Shown here in pieces: positions 7,171 through 61,068 of a stretch of DNA of 64,000 nucleotides. How positions within the stretch are numbered: the stretch's first letter is position 1; the number at the start of each line of letters is the position of its first letter. Origin of the DNA: Myxococcales bacterium (lineage in GTDB: Bacteria > Myxococcota > Myxococcia > Myxococcales > Myxococcaceae); the NCBI GenBank assembly GCA_030696265.1, contig JAUYSO010000017.1, positions 72,368-136,367 on the forward strand, in the 5' to 3' direction. The notes below the pieces were generated by a model, which was not told the origin of the DNA, did not search any database, and saw only the letters and a list, made by a program, of their open reading frames with translations. The position numbers were made by a program, and so were the translations under genes.

Positions 7171-10113
7171 ATGTCGGATGCGGTGACGTTACTCGAGGCG
7201 GTGCGCGGAGAAGCCAAGCCAGGCGTCTGGTCGAACGGCGTGAAGCTCGCGCGCGCGGGCGCCGTGGTGCAGGAGTCGACCGATGGCACCGAGATCGTCC
7301 TGCGCGTGAAGGCAGGCGGCCGGCCAGTGCCCTGGACGGTGGTGCTCACGCCGAAGGAGTCATCGTGGGAGTGCAACTGCCCGGCGCCGGTCGACCCCTG
7401 CGAGCACTCGGTCGCTGCGGCCATCACGCTCAAAGAAGCGGCCGAGTCGGGCACCACGCTGGCGTCCGTCGAGAGCCGGTACTCGCGCGTCGTCTACCGC
7501 ATCGTGCGCGTCGAGAGCGGGCTGCAGGTTCAGCGCGCCGTGGTGACGCCCGAGGGCGTCGAGACGCCGCTCGACTCACTCGCCGCGGCGCTCGCGAACC
7601 CGGCCACCGCGAAACAGCTGCAGGTGGAGCAGCACGACCTTCAGGCCGACCGGCTGCTCGAGAAGAAGACACGGCTCGCGTTGCCGCCCGAGCGGGTCGA
7701 CGCAGTGCTCGGCGTGTTGCAGCCCAGCCGCACCGTGCTGCTCGATGGGCGGCCGGTGGCCATCGCCTCGGAGCTGCTGCTCCCACGCGTGACGGTGAAG
7801 GACGACGCCGACAGCATCGTGGTGACGGTCGCGAAGGACTCACGCGTGACCGAAGTGCTCGGGGCCGGCGTCGCCGTCGCGGGTGACACGCTCTTCCGCC
7901 TCGGGGAGCAGTCCTTCACCGGCGCGTGGCTCGAGAAGCTGCCGGTGGTGAAGACGTTCTCGGCGGCGCAGGCCGGTGAGGTGAGCGCGACCGTGGTGCC
8001 GGAGCTCGCGCGCCGCTTCTCCGTCGAGGTCACGAGCTCGCGGTTGCCACGGGTCGACGCGCGCCTCGAGCCGCGCGTCGTGCTCGAGGTCAATCAGCTG
8101 GAGCAGGGCCTCTCGGTGCTCCCGACGCTCGTCTACGGCGCGCCGCCGACGGTGCGCATCGACGCAGGCCGCATGGTGTACTTGCGGGGGCCGGTGCCGG
8201 TTCGTGACGAAGCGCAGGAGCAGCGGCTGCTTCATCACCTGCGCGACACGCTGAACCTCGTGCCTGGTCGGCGCATGACGGTGAACGGTCCCGAAGCCAT
8301 TCGGTTCGCCGACTCGCTGCGAAAGTGGCGCGGCGGGTTGACGGGCGATGCGGCGCGCAAGCTGAGCCCCGACCTGAAGCTCATTCCCCGCATGAAGCTC
8401 GACGACCGGACCGGCGCGGGCGTGCCGTCGGTCGCGTTCTCCTTCGACTTCGAGCTGGTGGGTGGCACGGCCGGAATGCCGACGCAGGTCGACGGCGCCG
8501 CGGTGCTGCGGGCTTGGGAAGATGGTTACGGGCTGGTGCCCATCGAAGGTGGTGGCTGGGCGCAGCTGCCCTCTGAGTTCCTCGAAGCGCAGGGCGCCCG
8601 CATCGCTGCGCTGCTCGCCGCGAAGCAGGAGAACGGAACGCTCGCCAACCACGCGCTCCCCCGCCTCGCCGAGCTCTGCGACTCGCTCGAGCAGCCGACG
8701 CCGCTGGGCCTCGACAGACTCAAGCCGCTGGCCGACGGGTTCGAGTCGCTGCCTGAGCCCACGCTCCCCGCCGACCTCACCGCGACGCTGCGGCCGTACC
8801 AGGTGCAGGGCGTGGCGTGGCTCCAGTTCCTTCAGCGCGCGGGCCTGGGTGGCGTGCTGGCCGACGACATGGGCCTGGGCAAGACGCTGCAGACGGCGTG
8901 CGTGCTGGGGAAGAAGTCGCTGGTGGTGTGCCCGACGAGCGTGTTGCCGACGTGGCTCGCCGAGCTCAAGCGCTTCAGGCCCTCGCTCACCGTCAACGCG
9001 TACCATGGGCCCAACCGCGCCCTCGACGACGTCGACGTGACGGTGACGACGTACGCGATTCTGCGGCTCGACCTCGTGCAGCTGCAGGCGCGCGAGTGGA
9101 GCGCGCTGGTGCTCGACGAAGCGCAGAACATCAAGAACCCCGAGAGCCAGGCGGCGAAGGCATCGTTCGCGCTGAAGGCTCCGTTCCGGCTCGCGCTGTC
9201 GGGAACGCCCGTCGAGAACCGCCTCGACGAACTCTGGAGCCTGATGCACTTCAGCAACCAGGGTCTGCTCGGTGGCCGGCGTCAGTTCGACGAGACGCTC
9301 GCGCGCCCCATCGCCGAGGGGAACGCCACCGCGAGGCTCGAGTTGAGGAAGCGGCTCAAGCCGTTCGTCCTGCGCCGGTTGAAAAAAGACGTCGCGAAGG
9401 ATCTGCCGCCGCGCACCGAGGTGGTGCGCACGGTGACGCTCGATGAACGCGAACGCGCCACGTACGACGCCATCTTCGCTGCCACGAAGGATGAGGTGGT
9501 GAAGCTGCTCGGCCAGGGCGGGAGCGTGCTCAAGGCGCTCGAGGCGCTGCTGCGGTTGCGTCAGGCCGCGTGTCACCCGGCGCTGATTCCAGGCCAGCTG
9601 GCGAAGACCTCGTCGAAGGTGCAGACGCTCGTCGATGCGCTCGCGACGGCCGTGGCCGATGGGCACAAGGCGCTCGTGTTCTCGCAGTGGACGAAGCTGC
9701 TCGACCTCATCGAGCCCGAGCTGACCGCGGCGGGCGTGCGCTTCTCGAGGCTCGACGGCTCGACCCCGAATCGCGGCGAGGTGACGGCCGAGTTCCAGAC
9801 GGAGGCGGGCCCGCCGGTGATGCTCATCTCCCTGAAGGCGGGCGGCACCGGCCTCACACTCACGGCGGCGGATCACGTCTTCCTCGTCGACCCGTGGTGG
9901 AACCCGGCCGTCGAAGCCCAGGCCGCCGACCGGGCGCACCGCATCGGGCAGGACAAGCCGGTGTTCGTGTATCGCCTCGTCTCGCAGGGAACGGTCGAGG
10001 AGCGCATCCTCACGTTGCAGGACAAGAAGCGTGCGCTGTTCGAAGCAGCGCTCGGAGATGGACAGTCGGCCGGCGCGCTGACGAAGGACGACCTGCTGGA
10101 GTTGTTCGCGTAG
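7171..10113 (+). CDS. SNF2-family (RapA/HepA-like) DEAD/H helicase with an N-terminal SWIM zinc finger
   Basis: SWIM CxCx(n)CxH ([17 protein letters not shown]). Helicase motif I DDMGLGKT, motif [13 protein letters not shown], and a C-terminal helicase domain ([41 protein letters not shown]). 980 aa. Confidence 0.9.
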
Positions 10114-10151: not shown

Positions 10152-11129
10152 TCACGCAGCCCGCGAGTGCGGGGCCGACAGCACCTTTCGAAGCTCGTCG
10201 ATGAGCTCGTCGGGCCGGTCATGAAGGGCCGCCCACGTCCACCGCAGCACCCGGTAGCCTCTCACCGTGAGCGCGTTGATTCTCTGCCGGTCTCGCTCGA
10301 ACGCGTCGACAGAGGAGTGCCACGCATACCCATCGGCCTCGAGGACGACCGCCGTTCCGGGGAACCTGAAGTCGAGCCGGTAGCGCCGGCCGCGCGCCGT
10401 CACCTTCTGCTGGAGCACTGGTCGCGGCATGCCGTGCTCATCGAGCAGCTCCAGCACTCGGGACTCGAGCTCGCTCTCGGGCACGCCGCCGAGCCCGGCG
10501 CGCCGCTGGGTGAGCCGGCGCAGCACCCGAATGCCTGGCGTCCCTCCTGCACGGTCGATGAACGCCGTCAGTCGCTCCGGGGTCGTGAGCTTGCGTCGAA
10601 GCGCGTCGTCGAGGGCAGTCGAGACGGCGGCCTCACGCTCCTCGGCGGCGAGGTCGAGCAACGTTCGCTCGATCGAGGTGACTCGAAGGCCACCGACCGT
10701 CGCCAGCTCTCGCGGCAGCAGCGCGCCCATTCGAAACACGCGGACACCGGAAGGGGCGCTCACGTGCCGGGTCGAGGCGATGACGATCGGCCCCGCGTCA
10801 TCGGAGAAACCAGAGAGTCCCCAGAGCGCCGCGGCGGTGCGATGCGAGAAGACACACCGTGGGCCGAACCACAGCGCGCTCGCTTTGAGACGTTGCCGCC
10901 ACGTCTCCGGGCTCCCTGCGATGACGCAGACGCCAGGGAACACGCGTCTCCAGCGCCCGGCGCGCACGCGGCGCTTCACTTGATCGACCGACATGCCGCG
11001 CTCGACGGCCTGCTCGACGCTGAAGACGCCGTGCTGACCCGCCGCCAACGTCACGACTGCCTGCTCTGCTGCACGCATCCCACCCTCCCCGCCCGTCCGA
11101 CGACTGGGAGTACCAGAGGGGGCTGACAT
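10152..11129 (-). CDS. AbiEi-like N-terminal domain plus DUF559 (restriction-endonuclease-like) protein
   Basis: N-terminal AbiEi_4-like helix-turn-helix region. C-terminal DUF559-like region (LEADGYAWHSS...DRQRINALTVRGYRVLRWTW). 325 aa. Confidence 0.65.
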   Translation of the reverse strand: MSAPSGTPSRRTGGEGGMRAAEQAVVTLAAGQHGVFSVEQAVERGMSVDQVKRRVRAGRWRRVFPGVCVIAGSPETWRQRLKASALWFGPRCVFSHRTAAALWGLSGFSDDAGPIVIASTRHVSAPSGVRVFRMGALLPRELATVGGLRVTSIERTLLDLAAEEREAAVSTALDDALRRKLTTPERLTAFIDRAGGTPGIRVLRRLTQRRAGLGGVPESELESRVLELLDEHGMPRPVLQQKVTARGRRYRLDFRFPGTAVVLEADGYAWHSSVDAFERDRQRINALTVRGYRVLRWTWAALHDRPDELIDELRKVLSAPHSRAA

Positions 11130-11186
11130 CGACTGGCACCGCGCGCGCGGAAACCGCCCGATTCGTGACGAGCGCTGCGGCTCGAG

Positions 11187-12098
11187 TCAGGTGCCGGTCT
11201 CGTGGCCGGTGACGTCCTTCACCCAGGCGTCGATCAACCGTCTCGCGATGCTCGCGCGGTGGAATTCGTGGCAGGCCGTCCGGCACCACCTCCCCCGAGA
11301 CCCAATCGGCCGTGAAGCCGATCATCAGCGAGTGCGGGAACGGCCAGGGCTGGCTCCCGAAGTATCGAACGTTGGCGACCTGGACGCCGACCTCTTCGTG
11401 CACCTCGCGCACCAGCGTCTCTTCGAGCGACTCGCCCACCTCGGAGAACCCGGCCAGGGTGCTGAAGAAGGCGACGGGGAACCGGCCCGAGTTCGCGAGC
11501 AGCGCCTCGTCTCCGCGACGCACGAGGGTGATGATGGCGGGCGTGATGCGCGGGTAGTTCACCTGCGCGCACACCGGGCACCGAATGGAGCGATCGGCCG
11601 CATCGCGAGGCGTCGGAGCCCCACACCGCCCACAGAACCGGTGCGTCGACGCGAAGTGCGCGAGCTGGTTCGCGCGCCCGGCGATGCCGAAGAGCGTCTC
11701 GTCGAGACGAGCCCACAGGCCTCGCAGCCCGACGAACTCGAACGCCTGTGGCACTGCGCTCCCTCGCGGCCAGCGCAGTGACAGACACGGCACCCATCGA
11801 GAAGCCCGACCATCGGAGCGTCGGCAGGGTCCAGCCCCAGGCTCGGCGAACGTGGGGAGCTGTTCGACGCCAACGCCTTCCCGCCGAAGCAGCACCTCGT
11901 TCTCCCCACACACGAACCAGTGGGCCACGGCAGGCAACGGCGACGGAATGACGACCTGCGGGAGGAACGGCCAGGGGGTGACTACCCCAGGCACGGCGCG
12001 TTCACCGTCAGCATCCGGGCGGAAACCGCACCAGAGGTGACACGCGGTGCGCTGCGTCAGCTCAAAACGGCCCCCTTGGTGCGATTCGCCGGAGTACA
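11187..12098 (-). CDS. nudC: NudC-like NADH pyrophosphatase (zinc ribbon + Nudix hydrolase) with an apparent frameshift near the 3' end
   Basis: Manual translation from the ATG at 12098. NudC N-domain (AHWFVCGENEVLL), Cys4 zinc ribbon (FCGRCGAP...CPVCAQVNYPRITP) and Nudix box (GFSEVGESLEETLVREVHEEVGVQV). After ...ADWVSGEVVPDG the NudC-type C-terminus (EFHRASIARRLIDAWV...stop at 11187) is in the +1 frame. The original frame instead runs on into the next gene. Confidence 0.6.
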
Positions 12099-12132
12099 TC
12101 GGAGGCCCCCTTCGCCCCGCCCAGGAGCCCCG

Positions 12133-13755
12133 ATGAACGGCCTCATGATGACGCAGCCGCTGCTCATCTCGTCGCAGCTCGAGTTCGCCGCCCGCTTTCA
12201 CCGCTCGGTCGAGATCGTCACCCGCACCGTCGAAGGGCCCATCGTTCGCACCACGTGGGCGGGCCTCGCCGACCGCGTGCGGCAGCTCGCGAACGCGTTG
12301 ACCGCCGCGGGCATCAAGCCCGGTGATGTGGTCGCGACGCTCGCGTGGAACACCCAGCGTCACCTCGAGCTCTACTTCGCCGTCTCGGGCATGGGCGCTG
12401 TCCTCCACACCATCAACCCGCGCCTGCCTCCAGACCAGCTCGCGTGGATCGCCAACGACGCGGGGGACGTGATGCTCTGCTTCGACACCACCTTCACCCC
12501 GCTCGCGAAGCACCTTGCCTCGGTGCCCGGGCCCATCACGCAGTTCATCGCCCTCACTGACGAAGCGCACCTGCCGAAGGACACTGGCATCGCGGGCCTT
12601 CGCGCCTACGAGTCGTTGCTCCCGGGCCAGCCGACGACCTTCTCGTGGCCGGCCCTCGACGAGAACACCGCCAGCTCGCTCTGCTACACGTCGGGCACCG
12701 TGGGGATGCCGAAGGGCGTCCTCTACTCGCACCGCAGCACCGTGCTGCACAGCTACGCCATCTGCATGGCCGACGCGCTCGCCATCTCGGCGCAGGACGT
12801 CACGCTCCCCGTCGTGCCGATGTTCCACGTCAACGCGTGGGGTGTGCCGTACGCCGCGGCGATGGTGGGCTCGAAGCTGGTGATGCCGGGTCCCGCGCTC
12901 GACGGCGTGAGCCTGCTCGACCTCATTCAGGCCGAAGGGGTCACCAGCGCGCTCGGCGTGCCGACCGTGTGGCTCGGCCTGCTGGCGGCGGCGAAGACGA
13001 AGCAGGTCACCATGTCGACGCTCACCAAGGTCACCATCGGCGGCTCGGCCTGCCCGCCTTCGATGATCACCGCGTTCCAGGAAGAGCACGGCGCGCGGGT
13101 GCTGCACGCCTGGGGCATGACGGAGCTGTCGCCGCTGGGGACCGCGTGCGTGCTCCTGCCCAACCACCACGCCCTCTCGAAGGAGCAGCGCCTCGCCATT
13201 CAGCTCAAGCAGGGCCGGCCCATCTTCGGCGTCGACCTGCGCCTCGTCGATGACGACGGCAAGGTCGTGCCTCACGACGGTAAGACGTCAGGCCACCTGC
13301 AGGCGAAGGGCGGCTGGGTGGCGAGCGCGTACTTCCACTCCGACGACCGCTCGCATCACGACGGAGACTGGTTCGCCACCGGTGACATCGCCACCATCGA
13401 CGGCGAGGGCTACATGCAGATCACCGACCGCAGCAAAGACGTCATCAAGTCGGGCGGAGAGTGGATCAGCTCCATCGACGTCGAGCACGCGGCCACCCTG
13501 CACCCGGCCGTCGCGCAGGCCGCGGCCGTCGGCATTCCTCACCCGCGCTGGGTCGAGCGCCCCCTGCTCGTCGTCGTGAAGCACAAAGACCAGGACGTCT
13601 CGAAGGCCGAGCTCCAGGCGTTTCTCGAGACGAAGCTGGTGAAGTGGTGGCTACCCGATGCCATCGAGTTCGTCGACGCGCTGCCGCTGGGCCCGACGGG
13701 AAAGGTCCTGAAGCGTCAGCTGCGCGATCGGTTCAAGGACTTCGCGTTGCCTTGA
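12133..13755 (+). CDS. AMP-dependent synthetase/ligase (fatty-acid--CoA ligase family)
   Basis: AMP-binding motif [24 protein letters not shown], and the C-terminal [11 protein letters not shown] lysine motif. Start chosen at MNGLMMTQ (12133) instead of the ORF-track ATG at 11920, because upstream residues are low-complexity and overlap nudC. Confidence 0.85.
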
Positions 13756-13865
13756 CAGGGCTCGTCCGTGGAGCCCGGACCAGTCCAGCGCATCGTGCAA
13801 GGAACGCGGACGTGAGCGCGGGTCTCGATGACGACGTCGAAGGCGCAGGTCCTGAAACGTCAGCC

Positions 13866-14306
13866 TTAACGGAACGTGTACTTCAGGCCGGGGCCGGTCC
13901 AGAGCACCTTGCCCGACGCAGACTCGCGGGTCTCGATGACGACGTCGAAGGCGCCACGCTCGTCGGTGCGCGACAGGAAGCCCTGCGTGAGGTTCCACAC
14001 CTCTTCAGGGTGAAACGTCACCCGCGGCCACACCTGCTCGTTCATCACGCTGCCGTCGGCACGCACCGCGCGGAGAATCACGTCGACCACCACCAGCTGA
14101 TTGGAGCGGCTCGACAGCTCGAGGTTCAGGTTCACCATGCGACCCGCCACCGGCGCCGTCGGGTTCACCTGCACCTCGGCGAAGAACTCGTAGCGGGCGA
14201 GCTCCTCAGGCGTCGCGGAGTACTCCCCTGCGCACGCAGCGGAGAGCAGGACGACGATGGTGAGGAGCAGAACGCGCACGGTGGATTCCCCTTCGCGGGA
14301 CTCCAT
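13866..14306 (-). CDS. Small hypothetical lipoprotein
   Basis: 146 aa. Signal peptide with lipobox (RVLLLTIVVLLSAAC). High GC3. Confidence 0.55.
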   Translation of the reverse strand: MESREGESTVRVLLLTIVVLLSAACAGEYSATPEELARYEFFAEVQVNPTAPVAGRMVNLNLELSSRSNQLVVVDVILRAVRADGSVMNEQVWPRVTFHPEEVWNLTQGFLSRTDERGAFDVVIETRESASGKVLWTGPGLKYTFR

Positions 14307-16003: not shown

Positions 16004-16294
16004 TCAGTGCACTGGAGTGCCGGGGTCGATGAGCTCCACCGGCCCGAACTTCGACTCATACTTGGCGAGGTTCTCTTGAATCGCCATCAACAGGCGCTTC
16101 ATGTGCTTGGGGTTGGTGATGATGCGCGAGAGCACCTTCGCGCGAGGCTGCTGCGGCTGCACGTAGATGAAGTCGAGCGTGAACTCGGTCTCGGTGTGGT
16201 TGACGAGCGCCATGTTCGCGTAGCGGCCGTTGGCCACGTCGTCGTCGAGCTGAATCTGGAGCTGAATCTCGGGGGGCTTCGGTGTTTCACTCAT
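16004..16294 (-). CDS. DUF3467 family small protein
   Basis: 97 aa: MSETPKPPEIQLQIQLDDDVANGRYANMALVNHTETEFTLDFIYVQPQQPRAKVLSRIITNPKHMKRLLMAIQENL. This is the conserved DUF3467 pattern. The upstream part of the 350-aa ORF-track entry is low-complexity and rejected. Confidence 0.75.
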   Translation of the reverse strand: MSETPKPPEIQLQIQLDDDVANGRYANMALVNHTETEFTLDFIYVQPQQPRAKVLSRIITNPKHMKRLLMAIQENLAKYESKFGPVELIDPGTPVH

Positions 16295-17165
16295 GATGCT
16301 CCACGGTGTACCCCGGGGACCGCACGAGGTGAACCCTCGGAAGTGCAAACGTGTTGCGCTGGCACGCGGGCCTGTCACCATCGGCGCGCTCGTCGTGTCC
16401 TTCCCTCTCGACCCCGCCCGCACGTCGTCGTTCGACCTCGGCCCGCCTGACGCGAGCACCGCGGTGCTGCTGCTCCATGGCTTCACGGGGAGCCCGTGGG
16501 AGGTGCGGCCGCTGGCCGAGTCGCTCGCGGCCCGCGGCTTTTTCGTTCGCGCGCCCAGGCTCCCCGGCCACGGCACCACGCCCGAGGACATGCTGTGGGT
16601 GACGTGGCGGGAGTGGCTCGCTGCCGCCGAGGCCTCGTTCGACTCCCTCACGCGGTTCCCAAGGGTGTGCATCGCGGGGCTGTCGATGGGCGGGCTGCTG
16701 GGGCTGTTGCTGGCCGAACGGCACGGCGCGCGGGTGTCGAAGCTGGTGTTGATGGCGCCGGTGATGCGGGTGCAGCGGCGCGCTGGCCGGCTGCTCGAGC
16801 GGCTGGGGCCGGGCGCGCTGCAGGGCTTTGCCGCGAAGTGGCTCGAGAAGACGACGACCGACCTCGAAGACGACGCGGCGCGCGCCCAGTCTCCCGTACT
16901 GCCCAGGTACCCGCTCGGCCGGCTGCTCGACCTGTTCGAGCTGCAGCGGCTGGCGCGGCGCGCGGCTCCGCGGGTGAAGGCACCGACGCTCATCGCGGCG
17001 GCCGTGCAGGACCACGTCGTGCAACTCGAGAGCATCGAGGCGCTGCACGCCGACATGCCCGGGTCGCGCTTCCTGGTGCTCCAGCGCGGCTTTCACATTC
17101 TGACTCATGATGTCGACCGCGCCCGGCTCACGGCCGAGGTGGCGGAGTTCATCGACGAGCCGTAG
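16293..17165 (+). CDS. Alpha/beta-hydrolase fold carboxylesterase/lysophospholipase-like protein
   Basis: LLLHGFTGSPWE, nucleophile elbow GLSMGG, and a C-terminal His region (GFHILTHDVD). The true start may be a downstream GTG/ATG (about 16370), because the first 25 codons overlap the DUF3467 gene. Confidence 0.8.
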   Translation: MMLHGVPRGPHEVNPRKCKRVALARGPVTIGALVVSFPLDPARTSSFDLGPPDASTAVLLLHGFTGSPWEVRPLAESLAARGFFVRAPRLPGHGTTPEDMLWVTWREWLAAAEASFDSLTRFPRVCIAGLSMGGLLGLLLAERHGARVSKLVLMAPVMRVQRRAGRLLERLGPGALQGFAAKWLEKTTTDLEDDAARAQSPVLPRYPLGRLLDLFELQRLARRAAPRVKAPTLIAAAVQDHVVQLESIEALHADMPGSRFLVLQRGFHILTHDVDRARLTAEVAEFIDEP

Positions 17166-17204
17166 CGCCGTGCTCGTGACATCCCCCGCGAGCCGAAGGA
17201 CACC

Positions 17205-17475
17205 GCAACCCGTCACGGCGCGTGCGGAAGCCGCCCCAATCGTGACACTCGTTGCCCATGGCGGAGCGCACCCTCGCGTGTTCCCTCATCCAGAACCGGC
17301 CTCCTCCTGCAGAGGGCGGGAGGCGCGTCGCGTCACTGCCGTGCGCTTCGGGAAGGGCACCGTCCGTCACGCCGCGCGGAATGCGCGCCGGTCGTTGCAC
17401 CGAGCCGGCGGCCGCGCGTGAGCCGAACGAGTGTCACGATTGGGGCGGTTTCCGCGCGAGGCGTGACGAGCGGCG
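17205..17475. repeat. Long imperfect inverted repeat (about 45-nt arms, 23-nt perfect core, about 170-nt spacer) in a 3' intergenic region
   Basis: Core ccgccccaatcgtgacactcgtt (17231-17253) and its exact reverse complement aacgagtgtcacgattggggcgg (17425-17447). The arms extend with about 80% identity. The same peptide (ECHDWGGFR) appears in spurious ORFs on both strands. Confidence 0.8.
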
Positions 17476-17642
17476 AGTGCTTCACGCCAGAGACCGTGAC
17501 GAGCGAAGAAGCGGCTCCGCGGTGAAGGAGGCGTCGTGCGGCCCCAGAAGCAGGGCAGGGAGCCACCTCTTCACTGCGAAAAGAACTCACTCGTCGAGAG
17601 CGGTGACTCGTCGGAGCGTGCTCCGCTTCCGTGTGCGATGGC

Positions 17643-19223
17643 TCAGGGCGCGCAGACCTTCCGCACCCGAATCGAGGCCATGTCGCGCCAGCCGACGAAC
17701 AGCCACCCGGGCTCCACCGACGAGGCCACCACCGCCGGCACGCCTGCGCCGCCGTCGAGATTTCTCAGCCGGAAGCTGAAGGTGTCACCGACTGGCACCG
17801 ACGTGCCCACGACGATCTGCTGCCCACCGCCGGGCACGCGCTCCTGCATCGCGACGTTCAGGTCGCCCGACTGCGTGCGGAACGCCGACGCGGCGCCCCA
17901 CTGCTGGGCGAGGAACGACGCGGCCGCCGCCACCTCGGAGAGCCCGCGCGTCAGGTCGGGAAGAAAGTACACCCCTGAGAGCGACGAGTTGGTGTCGGAG
18001 TACGCGTAGGTCGCCGACACGCCCGCGTCCCACTCGTGGAGCTCGGCGTCGAGGCCTCCGTAGTACGGCGGGCTCCACACGCCGCCGTCACCGAGCCGAA
18101 TGAGCTGCCTCACCGTGTCGCCGTCCGCGTCGTCGGCGCTGTAGATGACGAAGTGGCCACGGTCGCTCAGGTTGACCGAGTTGAGCGTGACGTTCGGCGG
18201 AACGCCGGGCCCCACGTTCACGTCGCGAATCTGCGAGAGCCCACCATCGAACTCCCAGATCAGCAGGCGCGCCCGGTTGCCGTTCGTGTCCGCGAGGAAG
18301 GTGCTGACGGCCTGCTCGCCCACGCCGAGGCGCAGACCGCCCCAGAAGCCCGCGTCGACCAGCGTCTCGAAGCCCTCGAGGCCCGCGTCACCAGCCAGCA
18401 GCGTGTTCACCCGCGTGAGGCCGACGCCACCATCGGTCGTCGTCGCGACGAAGACGGACTCACCGAGCGAGCGCGCCTGGAACTGCGCCGGCGGAGGCCG
18501 CGCGACGACGTGGCTGCGTTGAAAGACGAAGGCCTCGTCGTACCGGGCGACGATGAGCTCGGGCGTGCCCGCCGTGGGTCGGCGCTCGAAGACCAGCGAG
18601 AAGCCCTGCGGCATCGCGAGCAGCTGGAACGGCGCCGTCGTCGAGGCTTCGTTGGTCAACACCGAGAGCGCGCGGACGTCGGTGAAGCCGTCACAGTCGT
18701 TGTCGAGCGAATCGCAGCGCGCCTCGGCGACCTGGTACGCAGACCCGTAGTCGGAGGCGTCGCACACCAACTGCTCACCGGACTCACAGCGGTTCTTCCT
18801 GCCGGCGCAGACGCCCAGCGTGAGCGTGCACGCCTGGGTGTCCGTCACCTCATCGTCGACCAGCCCATCGCAGTCGTCGTCCTTGTTGTTGCAGACCTCG
18901 ACCGAGGGGCGGCCCTCGTTGACGCAGACGCCGCTCCACACACGCTCCGAGGTGCAGACCTCCGTGCCCTTCTTGCACTCGCCGCGTCCACCACCACACT
19001 CGCGCGTGTCGCCCAGCTTGCACGCGCAGTCGCCCATCGACGACTCGAGGCGGCAGAACCCGTTGCGGCACGTCGTGCCTCCGGGGCAGGGGCCGCTCTC
19101 GCCACACGTGATGGCGCAGTCGACGATGGTGGGGGAATAGAACGAGCAGCCCGCCGCCGTGCCGAGCACCAGCGCCGCGCCGAACGCCAGCCCGTGAGCC
19201 CGTCTCAGAAGCGGGTTGACCAT
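17643..19223 (-). CDS. Cysteine-rich secreted lipoprotein (myxobacterial putative metal-binding CxxC...DNDCDG repeat region plus a large C-terminal domain)
   Basis: Start at the internal ATG at 19223 (MVNPLLRRAHGLAFGAALVLGTAAGCS, lipobox). Repeated C-x-C/DCDG motifs (CNNKDDDCDGLVDD, CDSLDNDCDGFTD). 526 aa. Confidence 0.7.
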   Translation of the reverse strand: MVNPLLRRAHGLAFGAALVLGTAAGCSFYSPTIVDCAITCGESGPCPGGTTCRNGFCRLESSMGDCACKLGDTRECGGGRGECKKGTEVCTSERVWSGVCVNEGRPSVEVCNNKDDDCDGLVDDEVTDTQACTLTLGVCAGRKNRCESGEQLVCDASDYGSAYQVAEARCDSLDNDCDGFTDVRALSVLTNEASTTAPFQLLAMPQGFSLVFERRPTAGTPELIVARYDEAFVFQRSHVVARPPPAQFQARSLGESVFVATTTDGGVGLTRVNTLLAGDAGLEGFETLVDAGFWGGLRLGVGEQAVSTFLADTNGNRARLLIWEFDGGLSQIRDVNVGPGVPPNVTLNSVNLSDRGHFVIYSADDADGDTVRQLIRLGDGGVWSPPYYGGLDAELHEWDAGVSATYAYSDTNSSLSGVYFLPDLTRGLSEVAAAASFLAQQWGAASAFRTQSGDLNVAMQERVPGGGQQIVVGTSVPVGDTFSFRLRNLDGGAGVPAVVASSVEPGWLFVGWRDMASIRVRKVCAP

Positions 19224-20371
19224 GTCGCCAGCGCTCCGTTCACGGAAGGGGTGATGAAGAAGTGCGCCTCGGACTCTTCGCTCGGGCCCGCGAGGCTGAC
19301 GATGGTGGCGATGACGCCGCCCACGATGGCCGCGCCGGAGAGGCCGATGAAGACGCCCGCGAGGGTCTGGTCGCGACGGCCGCCCTGCTCCACCGCGATG
19401 CGCATCGGGTCCCACGGGCCGCCGATGCGGAAGAACTCGGAGACCTGCCGGGACGCATTGGTGGACTGCACCGCGAAGAGCACCGCGAGGCCGCCCGCCA
19501 CGACGCCAGCGCCGAAGAGCACGACGCCGACCACGGGGAAACGGCCGCGCGGCCCACCACCCCCGGCCGAAGCGCCGCCTGCGACGAGCTTGAGCTTCAC
19601 GGTGCGCGGCTTGCCGGGCTCGACCATCACGTCGGTGCGGGTCGACTGAAAGCCATCGAGCTCGGCGATGAGCTCGTGGGAGCCCGGCGTCAGCTCGACC
19701 TTCGTTGGCGAGAGCCCGGCCAGCTTGCCATCGAGCATCAGCACGGCGTCGCGGGGGTCGGTCTCGATGGTGATCTCCACCGGCCCCGACGCCGCCTTCG
19801 GCTTGAGTACGAGGTTCACGTCCTTCGTCGAGCCTGACGCGAGCTCGAACGTCTCTTCGGCTTCGGGCTCACCGTCACGCGTGGCGCGAATGGTGTGCTT
19901 GCCGGGGCCCAGCAGAATCGGGTCGGCGAGCGGCGAGCTGCCCACCTCTTCACCATCGACGAACACCTTCGCGGGAGCACCTTCGACCTTCACGTTGATC
20001 TTCGAGGTCAGCGCGCGAATCTGCGACAGCTCGGTCTCGACGCTCTCGCGGCGATCGGCGGGCACCTTCTTGCCGCCCTCCTCGAGGTATCGGTTGAGGG
20101 TCTTCACGGCCTGGCCGTACTTGAAGAGCCGGCGCTCGGTGAGGCCGAGGTTGTAGAGCACCTCGAAGCCGGGCACGGCCTGGTACGCAGCGCGGAACTC
20201 GGCGAGGGCCGACGCGAAGTCGCCTTCTTTGAAGAGCGCGACGCCCTTCTTGTAGTGGTCGGCGGCCTCAGCCTTCTTCGCGGCCGCCTCTTTCTTCGCG
20301 GCGGCGCCCTGGGCGAACGCAAGCGGCGACGAGAGCAGCGTCAGCGCGAGCAGCCAGCGGGTGAGGAGCAC
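19205..20371 (-). CDS. Secreted TPR-repeat plus tandem PEGA-domain protein with a C-terminal TM segment
   Basis: Signal peptide (LLALTLLSSPLAFAQ). TPR-like N-terminus. Two PEGA motifs (AKVFVDGEEVGSSP; AVLMLDGKLAGLSPT). Glycine-rich TM region near the C-terminus. Confidence 0.8.
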   Translation of the reverse strand: MLLTRWLLALTLLSSPLAFAQGAAAKKEAAAKKAEAADHYKKGVALFKEGDFASALAEFRAAYQAVPGFEVLYNLGLTERRLFKYGQAVKTLNRYLEEGGKKVPADRRESVETELSQIRALTSKINVKVEGAPAKVFVDGEEVGSSPLADPILLGPGKHTIRATRDGEPEAEETFELASGSTKDVNLVLKPKAASGPVEITIETDPRDAVLMLDGKLAGLSPTKVELTPGSHELIAELDGFQSTRTDVMVEPGKPRTVKLKLVAGGASAGGGGPRGRFPVVGVVLFGAGVVAGGLAVLFAVQSTNASRQVSEFFRIGGPWDPMRIAVEQGGRRDQTLAGVFIGLSGAAIVGGVIATIVSLAGPSEESEAHFFITPSVNGALATWSTRF

Positions 20372-56702: not shown

Positions 56703-57500
56703 GTGAATGGTTTCTTCCGCGACCTGCAGCAGTTGATCGACGAGGGGCACCCCTTCGTCCTCTGCACCGTCATCGCGTCGCATGGCTCGACCCCGCAGAA
56801 GCCTGGCAGCAAGCTGGTGGTGAAGGCCGATGGCTCGCTCGTCGGCACCGTGGGCGGCGGCGCCATCGAGAAGCAGATCGTCGACGCGGCCCTGGCGCTC
56901 CTGCAGTCGTCCACCACCACCTCGACCCTCGACACGCACCTCACGCACGAGCTCGGCATGTGCTGCGGCGGGCGCATGACGGTGTTCCTCGAGAAGCACG
57001 CCGCCGCGCCGGCCCTCGTCCTCTTCGGCGCGGGCCACGTCGCGAAGGAGCTCTCGGCCCTCGCCGTCGCCGCAGGCTTCGACGTCACCGTCGCCGACGA
57101 GCGCACCGAATGGGCGACCGACGCACGGTTCCCCGGCGCGCGGGTGCTGGTGCGCCCGGCCGATGACGTCGCGCGCGAACACGCCGGAGGACCCGACACG
57201 TATTTCGCCGTCGCCACGCACGACCACCCGCTCGACCAACGCTGCGTCGAAGCGCTCCTCGACAAGCCGTGGAGCTACCTCGGCGTCATCGGGAGCCGCC
57301 GCAAGGCCGAGCGGTTTCGTCAGCGGCTCCTCGCGGGGGGCTTCTCGAAGGACCGCGTCGAGGCGCTCGAGTGCCCCATGGGCCTCGACATCGGAGCGTT
57401 GACGCCGGTCGAGATTGGGCTGTCGATCGCCGCGCGCCTGGTGGCGGTTCGCCGGGCCGAGCGGGTCAAAGCCAAGGCGCGTCACCTCGCGTCGGTGTAG
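56703..57500 (+). CDS. XdhC/CoxI-family molybdenum-cofactor insertion accessory protein
   Basis: VIASHGSTPQKPGSKLVV...GTVGGG; Rossmann LVLFGAGHVAKELSALA; HDHPLD. 265 aa. Confidence 0.8.
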   Translation: MNGFFRDLQQLIDEGHPFVLCTVIASHGSTPQKPGSKLVVKADGSLVGTVGGGAIEKQIVDAALALLQSSTTTSTLDTHLTHELGMCCGGRMTVFLEKHAAAPALVLFGAGHVAKELSALAVAAGFDVTVADERTEWATDARFPGARVLVRPADDVAREHAGGPDTYFAVATHDHPLDQRCVEALLDKPWSYLGVIGSRRKAERFRQRLLAGGFSKDRVEALECPMGLDIGALTPVEIGLSIAARLVAVRRAERVKAKARHLASV

Positions 57501-57511
57501 GGTGCGCGCTC

Positions 57512-58777
57512 GTGCGTCGCCTTCTCGCCATCAGCGTCGTTGCCCTCACCGCCTGCCCTCCGCCGATGATGATGGTGACGCCTGACGCGTCCATCACGCC
57601 AGTGGTCGATGCGGGAGACGTCGAGCCTGAAATCGACGCGGGCCGCATGCGCTTCGACGGCGGCACGGTCGACGCCGGCTTCACCCTGGCGACGGCGGCG
57701 ACGTGGTGCCGCACGAAGGCGCTGGCGACCTGCCTGCGACAGGTGCGCTGCCTGAGCCTCTCGGAGTCCTCGCTCACCGACTGCGTGGTGCGCACGGCCG
57801 ACAGCTGCGACCAGCTGGCCTTCGACACCGGCGTCGACGCAGGCCGGCTGGTGTTCGACTCGACGCGCGCCGTCACCTGCCTCAACGCCTACGCCACCGG
57901 CAGTTGCACCCGGGAGCCTGCTTCGTGCGCAGGCCTCTTCTCCGGCCGCGTTCCCGCCGATGGCGGCTGCGTCATCGCCGACGACTGCAGCGCCGGCAGC
58001 TACTGCGACATCTACACGGGCACCTGCCCCTACCCCTGCCGCGCCTTCCGCGCTGCGGGCGAGACCTGCGACTTCTTCCGCCGCTGCGAGCCGACGCTCG
58101 GGTGTTACCGCGCCGACAGTGGCGTCGAGATGTGCAACCCGCTCAAGCGCGCGGGCGACTCGTGCGTCGACTTCGACGAGTGCGGCGCCGAGGGCGCGTG
58201 CATCAACCAGCGGTGCGTCGCGCGCCGGGCCGATGCCGGCGAGGTGTGCGGCGCGACGAGCGGGTACCCGTTCTGCGCCGACGAGTACTTCTGCCGTCAG
58301 GGCCCGCCCGCGATGGAAGGTGAGCCGCCCCCGCCTGGAACCTGCCAGCGGCGAACGGGCCTCAACGGCACCTGCGCCGGGAGCGGAACGTGCCTGCCGT
58401 CGCTGCGCTGCTCCACCGTCATCACCACCGGCACCTGCCTCGCCCGCGCTCGACGTGGCGAGACGTGCTCCGTCTACAACGACTGCGAAGATGGGCTGTT
58501 CTGCTCCAACGTGAACCAGCGCTGCGAGCCTTTCCCCGGCGATGGTGGGGACTGCGGCTACACGGTGGGCAGCAGCGGGCGATGTCTGACGGGCTACTTC
58601 TGCCAGTTCAGCGGCTCGGACGACCGTCGCTGCACACGCCGGCGTGCGCCGGGTGACGACTGCGACTATGATGGCATGTGCCTGTCGAATGAATGCGAGT
58701 TCGGCCGTCGCCCCGACGGTGGTTTTGGCGGGACGTGCGGAATCGCCTGCTCGCTGAAGGCCGACGCCGGGCTGTAG
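57512..58777 (+). CDS. Cysteine-rich lipoprotein with Dickkopf-N-like repeats
   Basis: Proposed GTG start at 57512 (VRRLLAISVVALTACPP lipobox; no in-frame ATG before the signal peptide). Repeated modules of the type CxxxxxCxxGxYCxxxxxxCxxPC...CxxxxxC. 421 aa. Confidence 0.65.
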   Translation: MRRLLAISVVALTACPPPMMMVTPDASITPVVDAGDVEPEIDAGRMRFDGGTVDAGFTLATAATWCRTKALATCLRQVRCLSLSESSLTDCVVRTADSCDQLAFDTGVDAGRLVFDSTRAVTCLNAYATGSCTREPASCAGLFSGRVPADGGCVIADDCSAGSYCDIYTGTCPYPCRAFRAAGETCDFFRRCEPTLGCYRADSGVEMCNPLKRAGDSCVDFDECGAEGACINQRCVARRADAGEVCGATSGYPFCADEYFCRQGPPAMEGEPPPPGTCQRRTGLNGTCAGSGTCLPSLRCSTVITTGTCLARARRGETCSVYNDCEDGLFCSNVNQRCEPFPGDGGDCGYTVGSSGRCLTGYFCQFSGSDDRRCTRRRAPGDDCDYDGMCLSNECEFGRRPDGGFGGTCGIACSLKADAGL

Positions 58778-58789
58778 GAAGCGTTTGCA

Positions 58790-60142
58790 GTGACGACCTC
58801 ACACGCCTTCGTCATCGGACTCATCGCGGGCGTCATCGTGGCGTGCAGCCCCGTGCCTCCACCGCTGCTGGTCCTCCCCGACGGCGGCATCGGCGCCGGC
58901 GGCGTGGGCGGCGGCTCATCGGGCACGGGCGGTGGCTCGGCTGACGGAGGGCTTCCGCTGAGGAGCGCCTGTGCCACCTTGAACGCCCGGCGCTGCGAGA
59001 CGTTGCGCACCTGCGGCGTCATCGACGACACGACCGACGCCTACCGCGCGTGCGTGGCGTGGCTCACCGCGACCTGGTGCGGCCCCACCCAATGGCCCTC
59101 ACGCGTCGAGGTGGGCACGCTGCGCTACGACGCGATTCGTGCGCAGACGTGCGCGACCGACTGGGCCACCCGCTCGTGCAGCGACTGGGCGATGGAGCCG
59201 GCCTCGTGCAAGAGCTTCCTGCTCCCGGCCGTCTCGCTCGGTGGCCGCTGCTACGACGGCTACCAGGAGTGCTCCGACGGCGTGTGTCGCGGCGGCGGCT
59301 GCCCGCGCAAGTGCCTGGCCCGTGGCGCCATCGCAGAGGTCTGCCTCACCACCGCCGACTGCCAGGCGAACCTCTACTGCCGGCCGCCCCTGGGCGCGTC
59401 GGGCTCGAGCCAGTGCAGCCAGTTCGGGGCCGAGTCTGCGCCGTGTGGCCCGACCCAGCTGTGCGCCCCGGGCCTCGTCTGCAGCGCCGGAGCGTGTCGT
59501 CGCCTGCCCGTCGCCGAGCAGCCCTGTGTCGTCGGCCGCTGCGACGACTCGGCGTTCTGCGTCGCGTCGGCGGACGGCGGCGTGTGCGAGTCGCGCCGCG
59601 ACGCAGGCCTCGGCTGCAACGACGACTCTCAGTGCGGCCCGAGCCTGGTGTGCGACGCCATCACCCAGTCGTGCGTCGCGTCGTCGGCCCCCATCGGCGC
59701 CGAGTGCTCCCCGCGGCAACAATGCCCTCAGGGTGCGACGTGCCTCATCGAGACCGGTCAGCAGCGCGGCGTGTGCTCCGTGCTCAAGCGCGCGACGGAG
59801 CCCTGCCGCGTCGCCAGTGACTGTCAGGGCCACCTCACCTGCGTCGAGGCCGACGGCGGTCGAAGCTGCGCGCCGCTGCTGAAGAACGCGTCGGTCTGCA
59901 GCACCTCGCGCGACTGTCTGGCGTTGAGCGCCTGCGTCGCAGGCAACTGTGTGGGGCTCCCTGCGCTGGGCGAGCCGTGTTCGACGACCAGGCCGTGTCT
60001 GTGGGGCGCGTGCCTCGATGGCGCTGACGGCGGCGCGGTGTGCATCGAGCCGCAGGGCCCGGGCCAGGCGTGTCGCACGGGCGCTGACTGCGCGTCGGGG
60101 CGGTGTGAGCAGGGCCTGTGCGCGGCGGCGTGTCTTCCGTAG
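58790..60142 (+). CDS. Cysteine-rich lipoprotein paralog (Dickkopf-N-like repeats)
   Basis: MTTSHAFVIGLIAGVIVACS (lipobox), Gly-rich linker, then about 8 Cys-rich modules similar to the upstream gene (e.g. CxxDxxCxxGLxCxxxxCxxLP). 450 aa. Confidence 0.7.
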   Translation: MTTSHAFVIGLIAGVIVACSPVPPPLLVLPDGGIGAGGVGGGSSGTGGGSADGGLPLRSACATLNARRCETLRTCGVIDDTTDAYRACVAWLTATWCGPTQWPSRVEVGTLRYDAIRAQTCATDWATRSCSDWAMEPASCKSFLLPAVSLGGRCYDGYQECSDGVCRGGGCPRKCLARGAIAEVCLTTADCQANLYCRPPLGASGSSQCSQFGAESAPCGPTQLCAPGLVCSAGACRRLPVAEQPCVVGRCDDSAFCVASADGGVCESRRDAGLGCNDDSQCGPSLVCDAITQSCVASSAPIGAECSPRQQCPQGATCLIETGQQRGVCSVLKRATEPCRVASDCQGHLTCVEADGGRSCAPLLKNASVCSTSRDCLALSACVAGNCVGLPALGEPCSTTRPCLWGACLDGADGGAVCIEPQGPGQACRTGADCASGRCEQGLCAAACLP

Positions 60143-60426
60143 CGGTCGAAGGCGAGTGCGCTCCGTGCGCATCCTGATGCCTGCTCCCAAGTCACCCGAA
60201 GCCTCCAGCGGCGCGGGAGTGCAAGTCCGAAGTTCGCCGCCCGCGGAGCAGGCTCGAGGCGCGTGGCCACGCGGGCTTTCGAGGTCGAGTGCCGTCATCG
60301 CGCGCCCGTGACGAGGGCCGCGGGCGACGCGCAGGGCGATGCAGCTCCCGCGTCAAGCGGCAGACCCGCGAAGCCCTCACGACCCTGCGCTGCCGTGCGT
60401 GTGATGCGTGGAAGATCGACGGCGCG

Positions 60427-61068
60427 TCACGACGAGGAGAAGTCGCTCCACGGGTAGCCGCTCCACGCAGGCACTCCCACCGGCGACGGCAGCTCGAGCA
60501 GGGTGCGCTCGAGGTCGAAGTGACAGCGCCAGAGCGTGCGGCAGAGCGCATCGAGGACGTACCGGAGCGCGCGGTGCTGGGGCCGCTCGAGTTCCTCGAG
60601 GAACGGCAGCACATCGTGGATTCCGAGCAGACGCCGCACGCTGCCTCGGGAGAGCGGCTGCTGGCTGCGCTCGTCGACGATGGCCTGGCGGCTCAGCACG
60701 TCATTCACCAGCGCGTGGCCCCCTCGCACCTCGAGCACCTCGCGCAAGACGTTCGCGACGTGCCCACGATCGAGGAGGCGTCGACGCCGCTTCCACGGGA
60801 TCCGGGGGCGCAGGTCGAACGGCGCATGCCGCTCGAGGTGGCTCAACGCGTGGTCGCCGATGAGACCCTTTGGCAACACGCCGCGCAGGTGATGCAGCCG
60901 CGACGGCTTCGGCAGGTGCTTCGTCGTCTGCGTCGCCCAGCGGATGAAAGGGTTCACCTTGTCGGAGGAGCGACGACGCCACACCACGGCGCGCACCTCG
61001 ATCGTGCTGTCGTCGAACACGCCGTCGGCGTCGTCCCAGGCGTCGGGGTCGGCCGACAACGTCGCCAT
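60427..61068 (-). CDS. Hypothetical protein
   Basis: Start at the internal ATG 61068 (MATLSADPDAWDD...). 213 aa with normal composition. The upstream 110 codons of the ORF-track entry are discarded. Divergent from the ECF sigma gene. Confidence 0.4.
   Translation of the reverse strand: MATLSADPDAWDDADGVFDDSTIEVRAVVWRRRSSDKVNPFIRWATQTTKHLPKPSRLHHLRGVLPKGLIGDHALSHLERHAPFDLRPRIPWKRRRRLLDRGHVANVLREVLEVRGGHALVNDVLSRQAIVDERSQQPLSRGSVRRLLGIHDVLPFLEELERPQHRALRYVLDALCRTLWRCHFDLERTLLELPSPVGVPAWSGYPWSDFSSS

Follow-up and report, generated by a model that had tools for sequence, protein, structure and literature searches.

The repetitive extragenic palindromic (REP) sequences and bacterial interspersed mosaic elements (BIME) of enterobacteria and pseudomonads are short extragenic palindromes with a GTAG/CTAC head, present in tens to hundreds of copies. 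In mycobacteria, the mycobacterial interspersed repetitive units-variable number tandem repeats (MIRU-VNTR) are intergenic direct tandem repeats of 40-110 bp at dispersed loci, polymorphic in copy number between strains. Correia/ERIC-type MITEs (miniature inverted-repeat transposable elements) are defined elements of 100-170 bp with many copies, some of them with target-site duplications. REP doublets that form hairpins, named REPINs, are mobilised by REP-associated tyrosine transposases (RAYT) (PMC3116915, PMC3337134); they have characteristic spacers of 34-110 bp and are the replicating unit, with tens to hundreds of copies (PMC3337134). Here, we analyzed an inverted repeat located between a hydrolase gene and a MopE-like gene in a 64,000-nt stretch of a Myxococcales bacterium (contig JAUYSO010000017.1, positions 72,368 to 136,367), hereafter the window. 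This inverted repeat probably consists of two oppositely oriented copies of an interspersed palindromic repeat of ~50 nt, in a REP/BIME- or MIRU-like cluster that underwent a local inverted duplication.

Like the REP and BIME sequences, the unit is a short imperfect palindrome with conserved flanking bases, extragenic, found at many loci either single or clustered, and its number at one site varies between strains; like REPs, it is also often located just 3' of stop codons. In contrast, the unit has no GTAG/CTAC head (this tetranucleotide was absent from the consensus of 26 copies, in which ACTCGTT(T)CGG is the conserved flank), is longer (~50 nt), has a nested double stem and shows a low apparent copy number. 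Its clusters are direct tandem arrays with linkers whereas orientations alternate in BIMEs, the host belongs to the Myxococcota, and no RAYT was found among the open reading frames (ORFs) scanned near the units. The geometry of the two arms, called A and B, is that of a REPIN, with two inverted palindromic repeats and a less conserved spacer folding into a long hairpin. However, the A/B doublet is a one-off with a 172-nt spacer, absent in near-identical relatives, and singlets or direct arrays are the usual arrangement. As in MIRU-VNTR loci, copy number is variable: this junction has 0, 2-3 or 7 units, and a norQ-like/norD-like junction has 4 vs. 2. The two kinds have no sequence relationship, however; the core here is palindromic, its period (107) cannot be divided by three, and small overlapping ORFs are lacking. 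A non-coding intergenic repeat with inverted termini and a possible RNA hairpin also recalls the Correia/ERIC-type elements, from which it differs by the repetition of the ~50-nt arm only, with no full-length element. The array behavior is closest to that of BIME clusters and MIRU-VNTR loci. We classify the unit under the general kind of interspersed extragenic palindromic repeats, and not as a member of any named family. The unit had no match in a full-text literature sequence search or in Rfam, and the literature yielded nothing relevant on the motif strings or on REP, MITE or RAYT in myxobacteria.

The inverted repeat and its palindromic unit

The intergenic gap (17166-17642, 477 nt) lies between the stop codons of two convergent genes. 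As presented in Table 1, a repeat search delineated two arms of 50 nt each, 86% complementary (7 mismatches out of 50) and 172 nt apart. They share a perfect 23-nt core, CCGCCCCAATCGTGACACTCGTT, at 17231-17253 and, reversed, at 17426-17448, in agreement with the original prediction, made from the sequence alone, of an inverted repeat with such a core in a 477-bp gap between convergent 3' ends. When up to three mismatches were allowed, the core had exactly two sites in the window and none in 100 shuffles. Only four inverted repeats of at least 28 nt with arms within 1 kb were detected in the whole window; the A/B pair was by far the strongest, the three others being 71-74% complementary. Weak pairing extended outward from the arms to ~17193 and ~17486, and the region folded with z = -5.2 to -5.9 compared to shuffles, on either strand and as RNA or DNA.

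Each arm corresponds to one copy of a nested imperfect palindrome of ~50 nt, GTCAC-N-GCGGAAACCGC-N-GTGAC, followed by an ACTCGTT(T)CGG tail. A sensitive self-search revealed arm-like sequences at ~11140 and ~12010 and defined a ~35-nt unit, GCGGAAACCGCCCnnnTCGTGACACTCGTT. The presence of copies of the arms elsewhere in the window and at related loci thus supports the part of the original prediction that considered a repeat, although the repeated thing is the ~50-nt arm and not a ~300-bp element. When 26 copies were aligned with long flanks, the sequence common to unrelated loci was limited to ~50 nt, with the consensus CGTCAC(C/G)-N6-GCGGAAACCGCC-CnnnT-CGTGAC-ACTCGTT(T)CGG. In this consensus, an outer GTCAC/GTGAC stem encloses an inner GGCGG/CCGCC stem, and the nested palindromes span ~37 nt with the conserved asymmetric tail beside them. 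The palindrome paired in 77% of the cells of the 26-copy alignment, compared to 32-44% in shifted registers, and single units folded as the outer and inner stem structure predicts.

A first profile had been built from the first six unit copies and a later one from the 26 copies. With the latter, nhmmer matched unit A at 17210-17257 (E = 7.8e-14) and unit B at 17472-17426 (E = 1.4e-13). In total, four clear units were found in the window (A, B and the solo units C and D), all within 6.3 kb, together with decayed remnants only. The 23-nt core of unit A is identical to that of unit 1 of L108, the closest relative among the related loci (designated here by L numbers), and a 24-nt stretch of unit B matches the same unit exactly in the reverse orientation. 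The gap also contains a degenerate direct unit, E, which aligned with the second unit of L013 and L001 but matched the 26-copy profile weakly (E = 14); its 17373-17400 segment was 75% complementary to 17431-17458 in the repeat search. The truncated remnant that follows the hydrolase stop codon aligned with the complete units located after the TAG stop in L001 (3317-3353) and L013 (7492-7456).

The 172-nt center of the inverted repeat (17254-17425) has no self-complementarity, and no significant match to it was obtained in the rest of the window or across ~0.8 Mb of sequence from related loci. Its linker (17254-17359) had only a weak direct likeness to the array linkers of the relatives, with short matches to L108 4110-4120 and 4223-4232 and weak high-scoring pairs with L114.

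Alleles of the hydrolase/MopE-like junction

The homologues of the hydrolase came from Myxococcaceae/Myxococcales metagenome-assembled genomes (MAGs). These homologues and the members of the hydrolase 90% identity cluster gave at least 20 orthologous loci, and orthologues of the MopE-like gene adjoin the hydrolase gene in L003, L005, L107, L108, L111 and L114. We observed an empty junction, with 3-35 nt between the convergent genes, in L003/L004, L005, L008, L107 and L111-L113 (73-87% nucleotide identity), and the six-copy profile detected nothing in the orthologous loci of relatives with 80-82% protein identity. The junction was filled in the window (477 nt), L108 (484 nt), L013 (315 nt), L001 (at least 259 nt, up to the contig end) and L114 (774 nt), and these filled loci form one clade with at least 94% nucleotide identity. 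In L114, the junction contains seven direct units, for which Tandem Repeats Finder (TRF) reported a period of 107, 3.4 copies and 81% matches, with a consensus covering unit and linker. L108, L013 and L001 have 2-3 direct units each, the first immediately after the TAG stop. A second array consists of 4 units with a period of 75 in L024 and of 2 units in its orthologue L043. Orthologous sites are therefore either empty or filled, the tandem arrays vary in copy number, and the dispersed unit, once present at a site, tends to multiply in tandem along with the adjoining linker. No tandem array was reported by TRF in the window itself.

The L024 (1058-1332) and L043 (3942-4065) arrays are located in a nitric-oxide-reductase-like cluster, between a NorQ/CbbQ-like AAA gene and a VWA (NorD-like) gene, and their units run antisense to these two genes. 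Rearrangements at the 3' junction of the hydrolase gene are not limited to the repeats: at this hotspot, L009/L010 have an additional, inserted TPR gene (10801-11718). In L109 (3772-3843), the MopE-like/PEGA/kinase block is missing and a metallo-beta-lactamase-fold/ZnuA/ABC cluster directly follows the hydrolase gene. The idea that the array linker stems from the 35-nt spacer, taken as ancestral, at the empty sites was not supported, the alignment being no better than shuffled (p = 0.02-0.8). A CRISPR array was rejected, since the units differ from one another and the linkers are homologous to one another (TRF consensus, 81% matches); the CRISPR-DR9 match in Rfam reached 17.7 bits for a gathering score of 45.

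The units of all the relatives are in direct orientation, and A/B is the only inverted pair among the loci carrying the family. The 17375-17540 segment of the window aligned in reverse only, with L108 4061-4238 (69% over 181 nt, E = 2e-16), L001 3438-3571, L013 7341-7448 and several L114 modules. Within this segment, the linker block next to unit B is the reverse complement of L001 3510-3571 (82%) and L013 7396-7448. Compared with any direct module, the inverted block was 69-87% identical. Since the linker block was found in this array only, the inverted piece was copied locally and not from another locus, and the direct units filling the L108 gap indicate that the inverted structure arose in place. 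The inverted module is unique to the window, and the long hairpin, which is missing from L108, L013, L001 and L114, is thus strain-specific and derived.

These results bear directly on the proposal of a long-stem small RNA (sRNA) or riboregulator. A structured non-coding RNA, either a long-stem sRNA or a cis-regulatory element, would depend on the A/B hairpin, and its location in a 3' UTR between convergent genes as well as the very stable fold predicted on both strands (z about -5.2 to -5.5) are in line with this reading. However, the stability is equal on both strands because any DNA inverted repeat produces it, and the hairpin is lost in four close relatives, one of which (L108) has ~99% identical flanks. 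The covariation analysis across relatives identified 0 pairs changed on both sides among the 26 unit copies, mutated copies losing their pairing. In addition, Rfam gave nothing at the gathering score over the whole window and chance-level matches at E<=10 for 17000-17800 and the L114 array, and no sigma-70-like promoter was found. We consider such an RNA highly improbable. A terminator-like site with its stem at 17602-17588 followed by AGTTCTTTTC is separate from the inverted repeat; the evidence for it is weak, with one site compared to 0.5 expected in the consensus scan. A coding gap was also rejected: the ORFs 17252-17779, 17107-17421, 17333-17590 and 17149-17400 had no Pfam match, and the ATG-proximal frame was not maintained in L001.

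A discrete MITE of ~300 bp, with the arms and the center forming one element, had also been proposed. In favor of this hypothesis, inverted arms of 50 nt with 86% complementarity bracket a short non-coding segment between two genes, the more distant relatives lack the sequence inserted in this gap, and the arm sequence is multi-copy. By contrast, the center is single-copy in the window and in the ~0.8 Mb of related loci, and two inverted units occur at no other locus. By direct reading, no target-site duplication was seen beside 17193/17486 or 17204/17475, and whichever plausible boundary is taken, the arms are not bordered by a direct repeat. Moreover, arm conservation is best at the inner and not the outer end, and direct units occupy this gap in L108. 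A MITE is therefore very unlikely here.

The unusual arrangement could also have been created by the assembly, if a palindromic repeat gave rise to a fold-back or a chimeric join. The unit is palindromic, a diverged tandem array is hard for short-read assemblers, and the arrangement of the window is unique among the five filled alleles. A fold-back would nevertheless give perfect inverted copies, whereas the arms differ at 7 of 50 positions, the inverted block is 69-87% identical to direct modules and the center is not self-complementary, leaving only a very slight chance of an artefact. As for an inverton, in which the arms would be recombination sites for an invertase flipping the 172-nt center, it would fit inverted repeats flanking a short segment as well as a gap middle that is unalignable although almost equally long in both genomes (375 nt in the window, 377 nt in L108). 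This hypothesis is extremely improbable: no segment of L108 is reverse complementary to the center, the reversal being limited to unit B and its linker, no recombinase gene is adjacent (the neighbors are the hydrolase and MopE-like genes), and between two 3' ends there is no gene for a promoter flip to control. We also rejected a scenario in which the entire 375-nt middle was simply inverted with respect to L108, because the reverse-match coordinates fit no single inversion; an inserted or duplicated inverted module with other rearrangements is favored.

Compared with L108, we counted 29 differences over 3773 nt in the left flank and 24 over 2508 nt in the right flank, with 1 mismatch over 770 nt of the hydrolase gene. 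The gap itself (L108 3772-4255) was unalignable or 20-25% diverged, whereas other intergenic stretches differed by 1-2%. The middle could not be aligned, the edges were ~75-80% identical, and the gap has diverged more than 10 times faster than other intergenic stretches. At the right edge, 17600-17618 matched L108 4211-4229 exactly over 19 nt, and 17585-17632 was 83% identical.

Table 1. Features of the gap, its flanking genes and the solo units, with their positions in the window
Feature	Coordinates	Strand	Description
Left flanking gene	16293..17165	+	alpha/beta hydrolase, carboxylesterase-like; Pfam Hydrolase_4/Abhydrolase_1; TAG stop abuts the repeat cluster
Truncated first-unit remnant	17166..17184	+	CGCC..GTGCTCGTGACATC, immediately 3' of the hydrolase TAG
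Left arm (unit A)	17204..17253	+	GTCACG-N6-GCGG-AAG-CCGC-N6-CGTGAC with ACTCGTT tail
Linker within the inverted repeat	17254..17359	.	locus-specific; no copy elsewhere in the window or related loci
Degenerate direct unit E	17360..17400	+	GTCACGCCGCGCGGAATGCGCGCCGGTCGTTGCAC; imperfect pairing with arm B
Right arm (unit B)	17426..17475	-	only inverted unit seen at any locus
Inverted linker block	17476..17540	-	goes with unit B as one reversed array module
Terminator-like hairpin and T-run	17578..17602	-	downstream of the minus-strand gene; not part of the inverted repeat
Gap right edge	17600..17618	+	GCGGTGACTCGTCGGAGCG, direct-orientation match with L108
Right flanking gene	17643..19415	-	590 aa; sub-threshold MopE-type metal-binding motif (Pfam)
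Solo unit C	11132..11183	+	between frameshifted NudC-like and AbiEi/DUF559 genes; nhmmer E = 2.2e-10
Solo unit D	12004..12054	+	divergent region upstream of acyl-CoA synthetase gene; nhmmer E = 2.3e-9

Dispersal of the unit family and its genomic neighborhood

An exact-pattern scan of 185,579 species-representative genomes (pattern 1) gave 28 matches, of which only those of two Myxococcales MAGs, JAUXRI01 and JBBAQZ01, also had the unit tail, with further unit copies close by. The matches outside these two MAGs were singletons without tail. A second pattern, anchored on the tail and applied to metagenome contigs (pattern 2), recovered more copies, which carried the left half that had not been demanded. 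The features conserved without being demanded by the respective pattern were the ACACTCGTT tail with pattern 1, and GGAAA and the upstream GTCAC with pattern 2. Since the upstream GTCAC was part of neither pattern, it is independent evidence for the dyad. Overall, nhmmer detected the four window units with E values from 1e-14 to 1e-7, and also units in L001, L012, L013, L024, L027 and L032, in the metagenome loci L041, L043, L044, L072, L087 and L097, and in L108 and L114. The unit is present at at least 10 unrelated intergenic loci of related uncultured Myxococcales, and in one species-representative MAG, 5 exact pattern matches led to a total of 10 units, spread over 4 contigs. A plasmid collection gave no unit match, and viral contigs gave pattern-level chance matches only, without the other features of the family. 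The unit family is dispersed, extragenic and confined to a narrow clade of uncultured Myxococcales.

All the clear units lie between ORFs supported by the GC content at third codon positions (GC3), in either orientation: after stop codons, before start codons or between convergent genes. Their orientation and their distance to gene starts and ends were inconsistent. The neighboring genes encode, for example, NorQ-like and NorD-like proteins, an AddB-like nuclease, multihaem cytochromes, a PAP2 phosphatase, an HDOD protein, LysR-type and MmyB-type regulators, an M28 peptidase, and NudC-like and AbiEi/DUF559 proteins, among which we observed no functional theme. The sole transposase-like gene seen near any unit encodes a YhgA/Rpn-like Transposase_31 protein in L072 (676-1712); it is frameshifted (two frames) and located ~290 nt away.

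These observations are relevant to the last of the initial proposals, a protein-binding array, which had drawn on at least eight GTGAC/GTCAC half-sites within 300 bp. We indeed counted 8 such sites in the 355 nt from 17166 to 17520, the maximum over any 350-nt stretch of the window, for a window mean of 3.9 per kb. This density arises because the half-sites are the outer stem of each palindromic unit, together with unit remnants. The units could nonetheless be kept as binding sites for a DNA-binding protein, either a GTCAC-N25-GTGAC operator or the sites of a nucleoid- or partition-type protein. In favor of such a role, the dyad of the unit is conserved, and a low and clustered copy number is closer to what a regulon or a cluster of sites would show than to a selfish repeat in many copies. 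On the other hand, nested palindromes of ~37 nt with an asymmetric tail are typical of hairpin-forming repeats and not of dimeric operators. The lack of a theme among the neighboring genes, the inconsistent orientation and distance to gene ends, the presence of 0 to 7 copies at one site among close relatives, and the decay of the units by point mutation and deletion all argue against a retained role, which we regard as unlikely.

Other resemblances were rejected. An extracytoplasmic function (ECF)-type promoter (GGAAAC ... CGTT) would have an 18-nt spacer; its "-10" is not conserved in units C and D, the whole unit rather than two hexamers is conserved, and the orientation of the units relative to the downstream genes is inconsistent. 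The resemblances to attC, parS and MrpC sites were set aside with no formal test, the defining motifs being missing from the consensus.

Concerning the solo units, unit C was identical to the orthologous unit of L012 at 43 of 45 positions, with 92% identical flanks, showing that solo units are not hypervariable. The tail of unit D has a 12-nt deletion, whereas that of the orthologous L012 unit is intact. Both units are associated with a ~2-kb insertion (10152-11911) that separates the genes of an SNF2 helicase (7171-10113) and of the acyl-CoA synthetase (11920-13755), unit C in its middle and unit D at its right edge; in L002, the two genes are 45 nt apart. The insertion carries an AbiEi_4 and DUF559/REase_MTES_1575 gene (10152-11129, minus strand), with a lower GC3 of 0.81, and a NudC-like NUDIX gene (~11187-11911, minus strand), which is frameshifted and has a 39-nt deletion compared to the intact L012 copy.

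Two additional observations were made in the window. A 30-nt exact direct repeat, CGCGGGTCTCGATGACGACGTCGAAGGCGC, is present at 13817-13846 and 13925-13954, 108 nt apart, one copy being intergenic and the other inside the 3' end of a gene (13866-14306, minus strand); L108 has this repeat too. Furthermore, a ~3-kb stretch (57500-60427) contains no ORF passing the GC3 filter used elsewhere in the window, one marginal ORF alone being present (57269-58777, GC3 of 0.82 and GC content at second codon positions of 0.63).

Proposed history of the junction and its significance

A unit was acquired at the hydrolase/MopE-like junction, as we propose in the ancestor of the clade with at least 94% identity, and then multiplied together with a linker of ~55-60 nt to give a tandem array. 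No two of the genomes examined have an array with equal copy number and sequence. In the genome of the window, one module (unit B with its linker, ~17401-17540) is in reverse orientation and pairs with the direct unit A across 172 nt to form the hairpin. Dispersal of the unit may have been REP-like, a single-stranded DNA hairpin being recognized by a transposase that acts in trans. Arrays would grow and shrink by slippage or unequal recombination, and the inverted module may result from a local inverted duplication or from a template switch at the quasi-palindromic unit. The sole likely effect would be a strong hairpin in the DNA or in read-through RNA from the hydrolase gene, by which transcription could be paused or terminated or the 3' end shielded; the hairpin is probably neutral.

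Several points weigh against two copies of a dispersed REP/BIME- or MIRU-like repeat. The copies appear few for a REP-type family: the 64-kb window has four clear units, which all lie within 6.3 kb, and one MAG gave 5 exact pattern matches. No HUH/Y1 transposase was found among the ~40 ORFs scanned near the units, and a clean insertion of a single unit with defined ends was not captured, mobility being deduced from the distribution alone. Besides, the gap is ~20-25% diverged or unalignable despite ~99% identical flanks, for which slippage alone is no obvious explanation. Finally, all the relatives are metagenome assemblies, in which repeat arrays may be misassembled. The fast divergence of the gap is possibly due to shuffling of modules, gene conversion, mutation templated by the quasi-palindromes, replacement of alleles or mixed strains in the metagenome assemblies.

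A bolder hypothesis, which we regard as rather unlikely, is that the unit is the substrate of a dedicated machinery of the Myxococcota, such as a RAYT-like single-strand transposase or hairpin-directed recombination or mutagenesis, that inserts, amplifies, inverts and scrambles the units. If true, this machinery would explain a gap that is 20-25% diverged or unalignable between 6 kb of flanking sequence with less than 1% difference, and it would be an undescribed and currently active REP-like system outside the classical proteobacterial hosts.

The object itself, two copies of a lineage-specific interspersed palindromic repeat in a polymorphic repeat cluster, is ordinary. It calls for caution, as a stable and statistically striking hairpin does not amount to an RNA gene or a MITE when its arms belong to a repeat family. 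Since the arrays vary in copy number and orientation between strains that are ~99% identical, they could serve as VNTR-type strain markers. Near-identical flanks around a scrambled gap also make this junction a place to study the evolution of quasi-palindromic repeats and to seek a REP-mobilising enzyme in Myxococcota.

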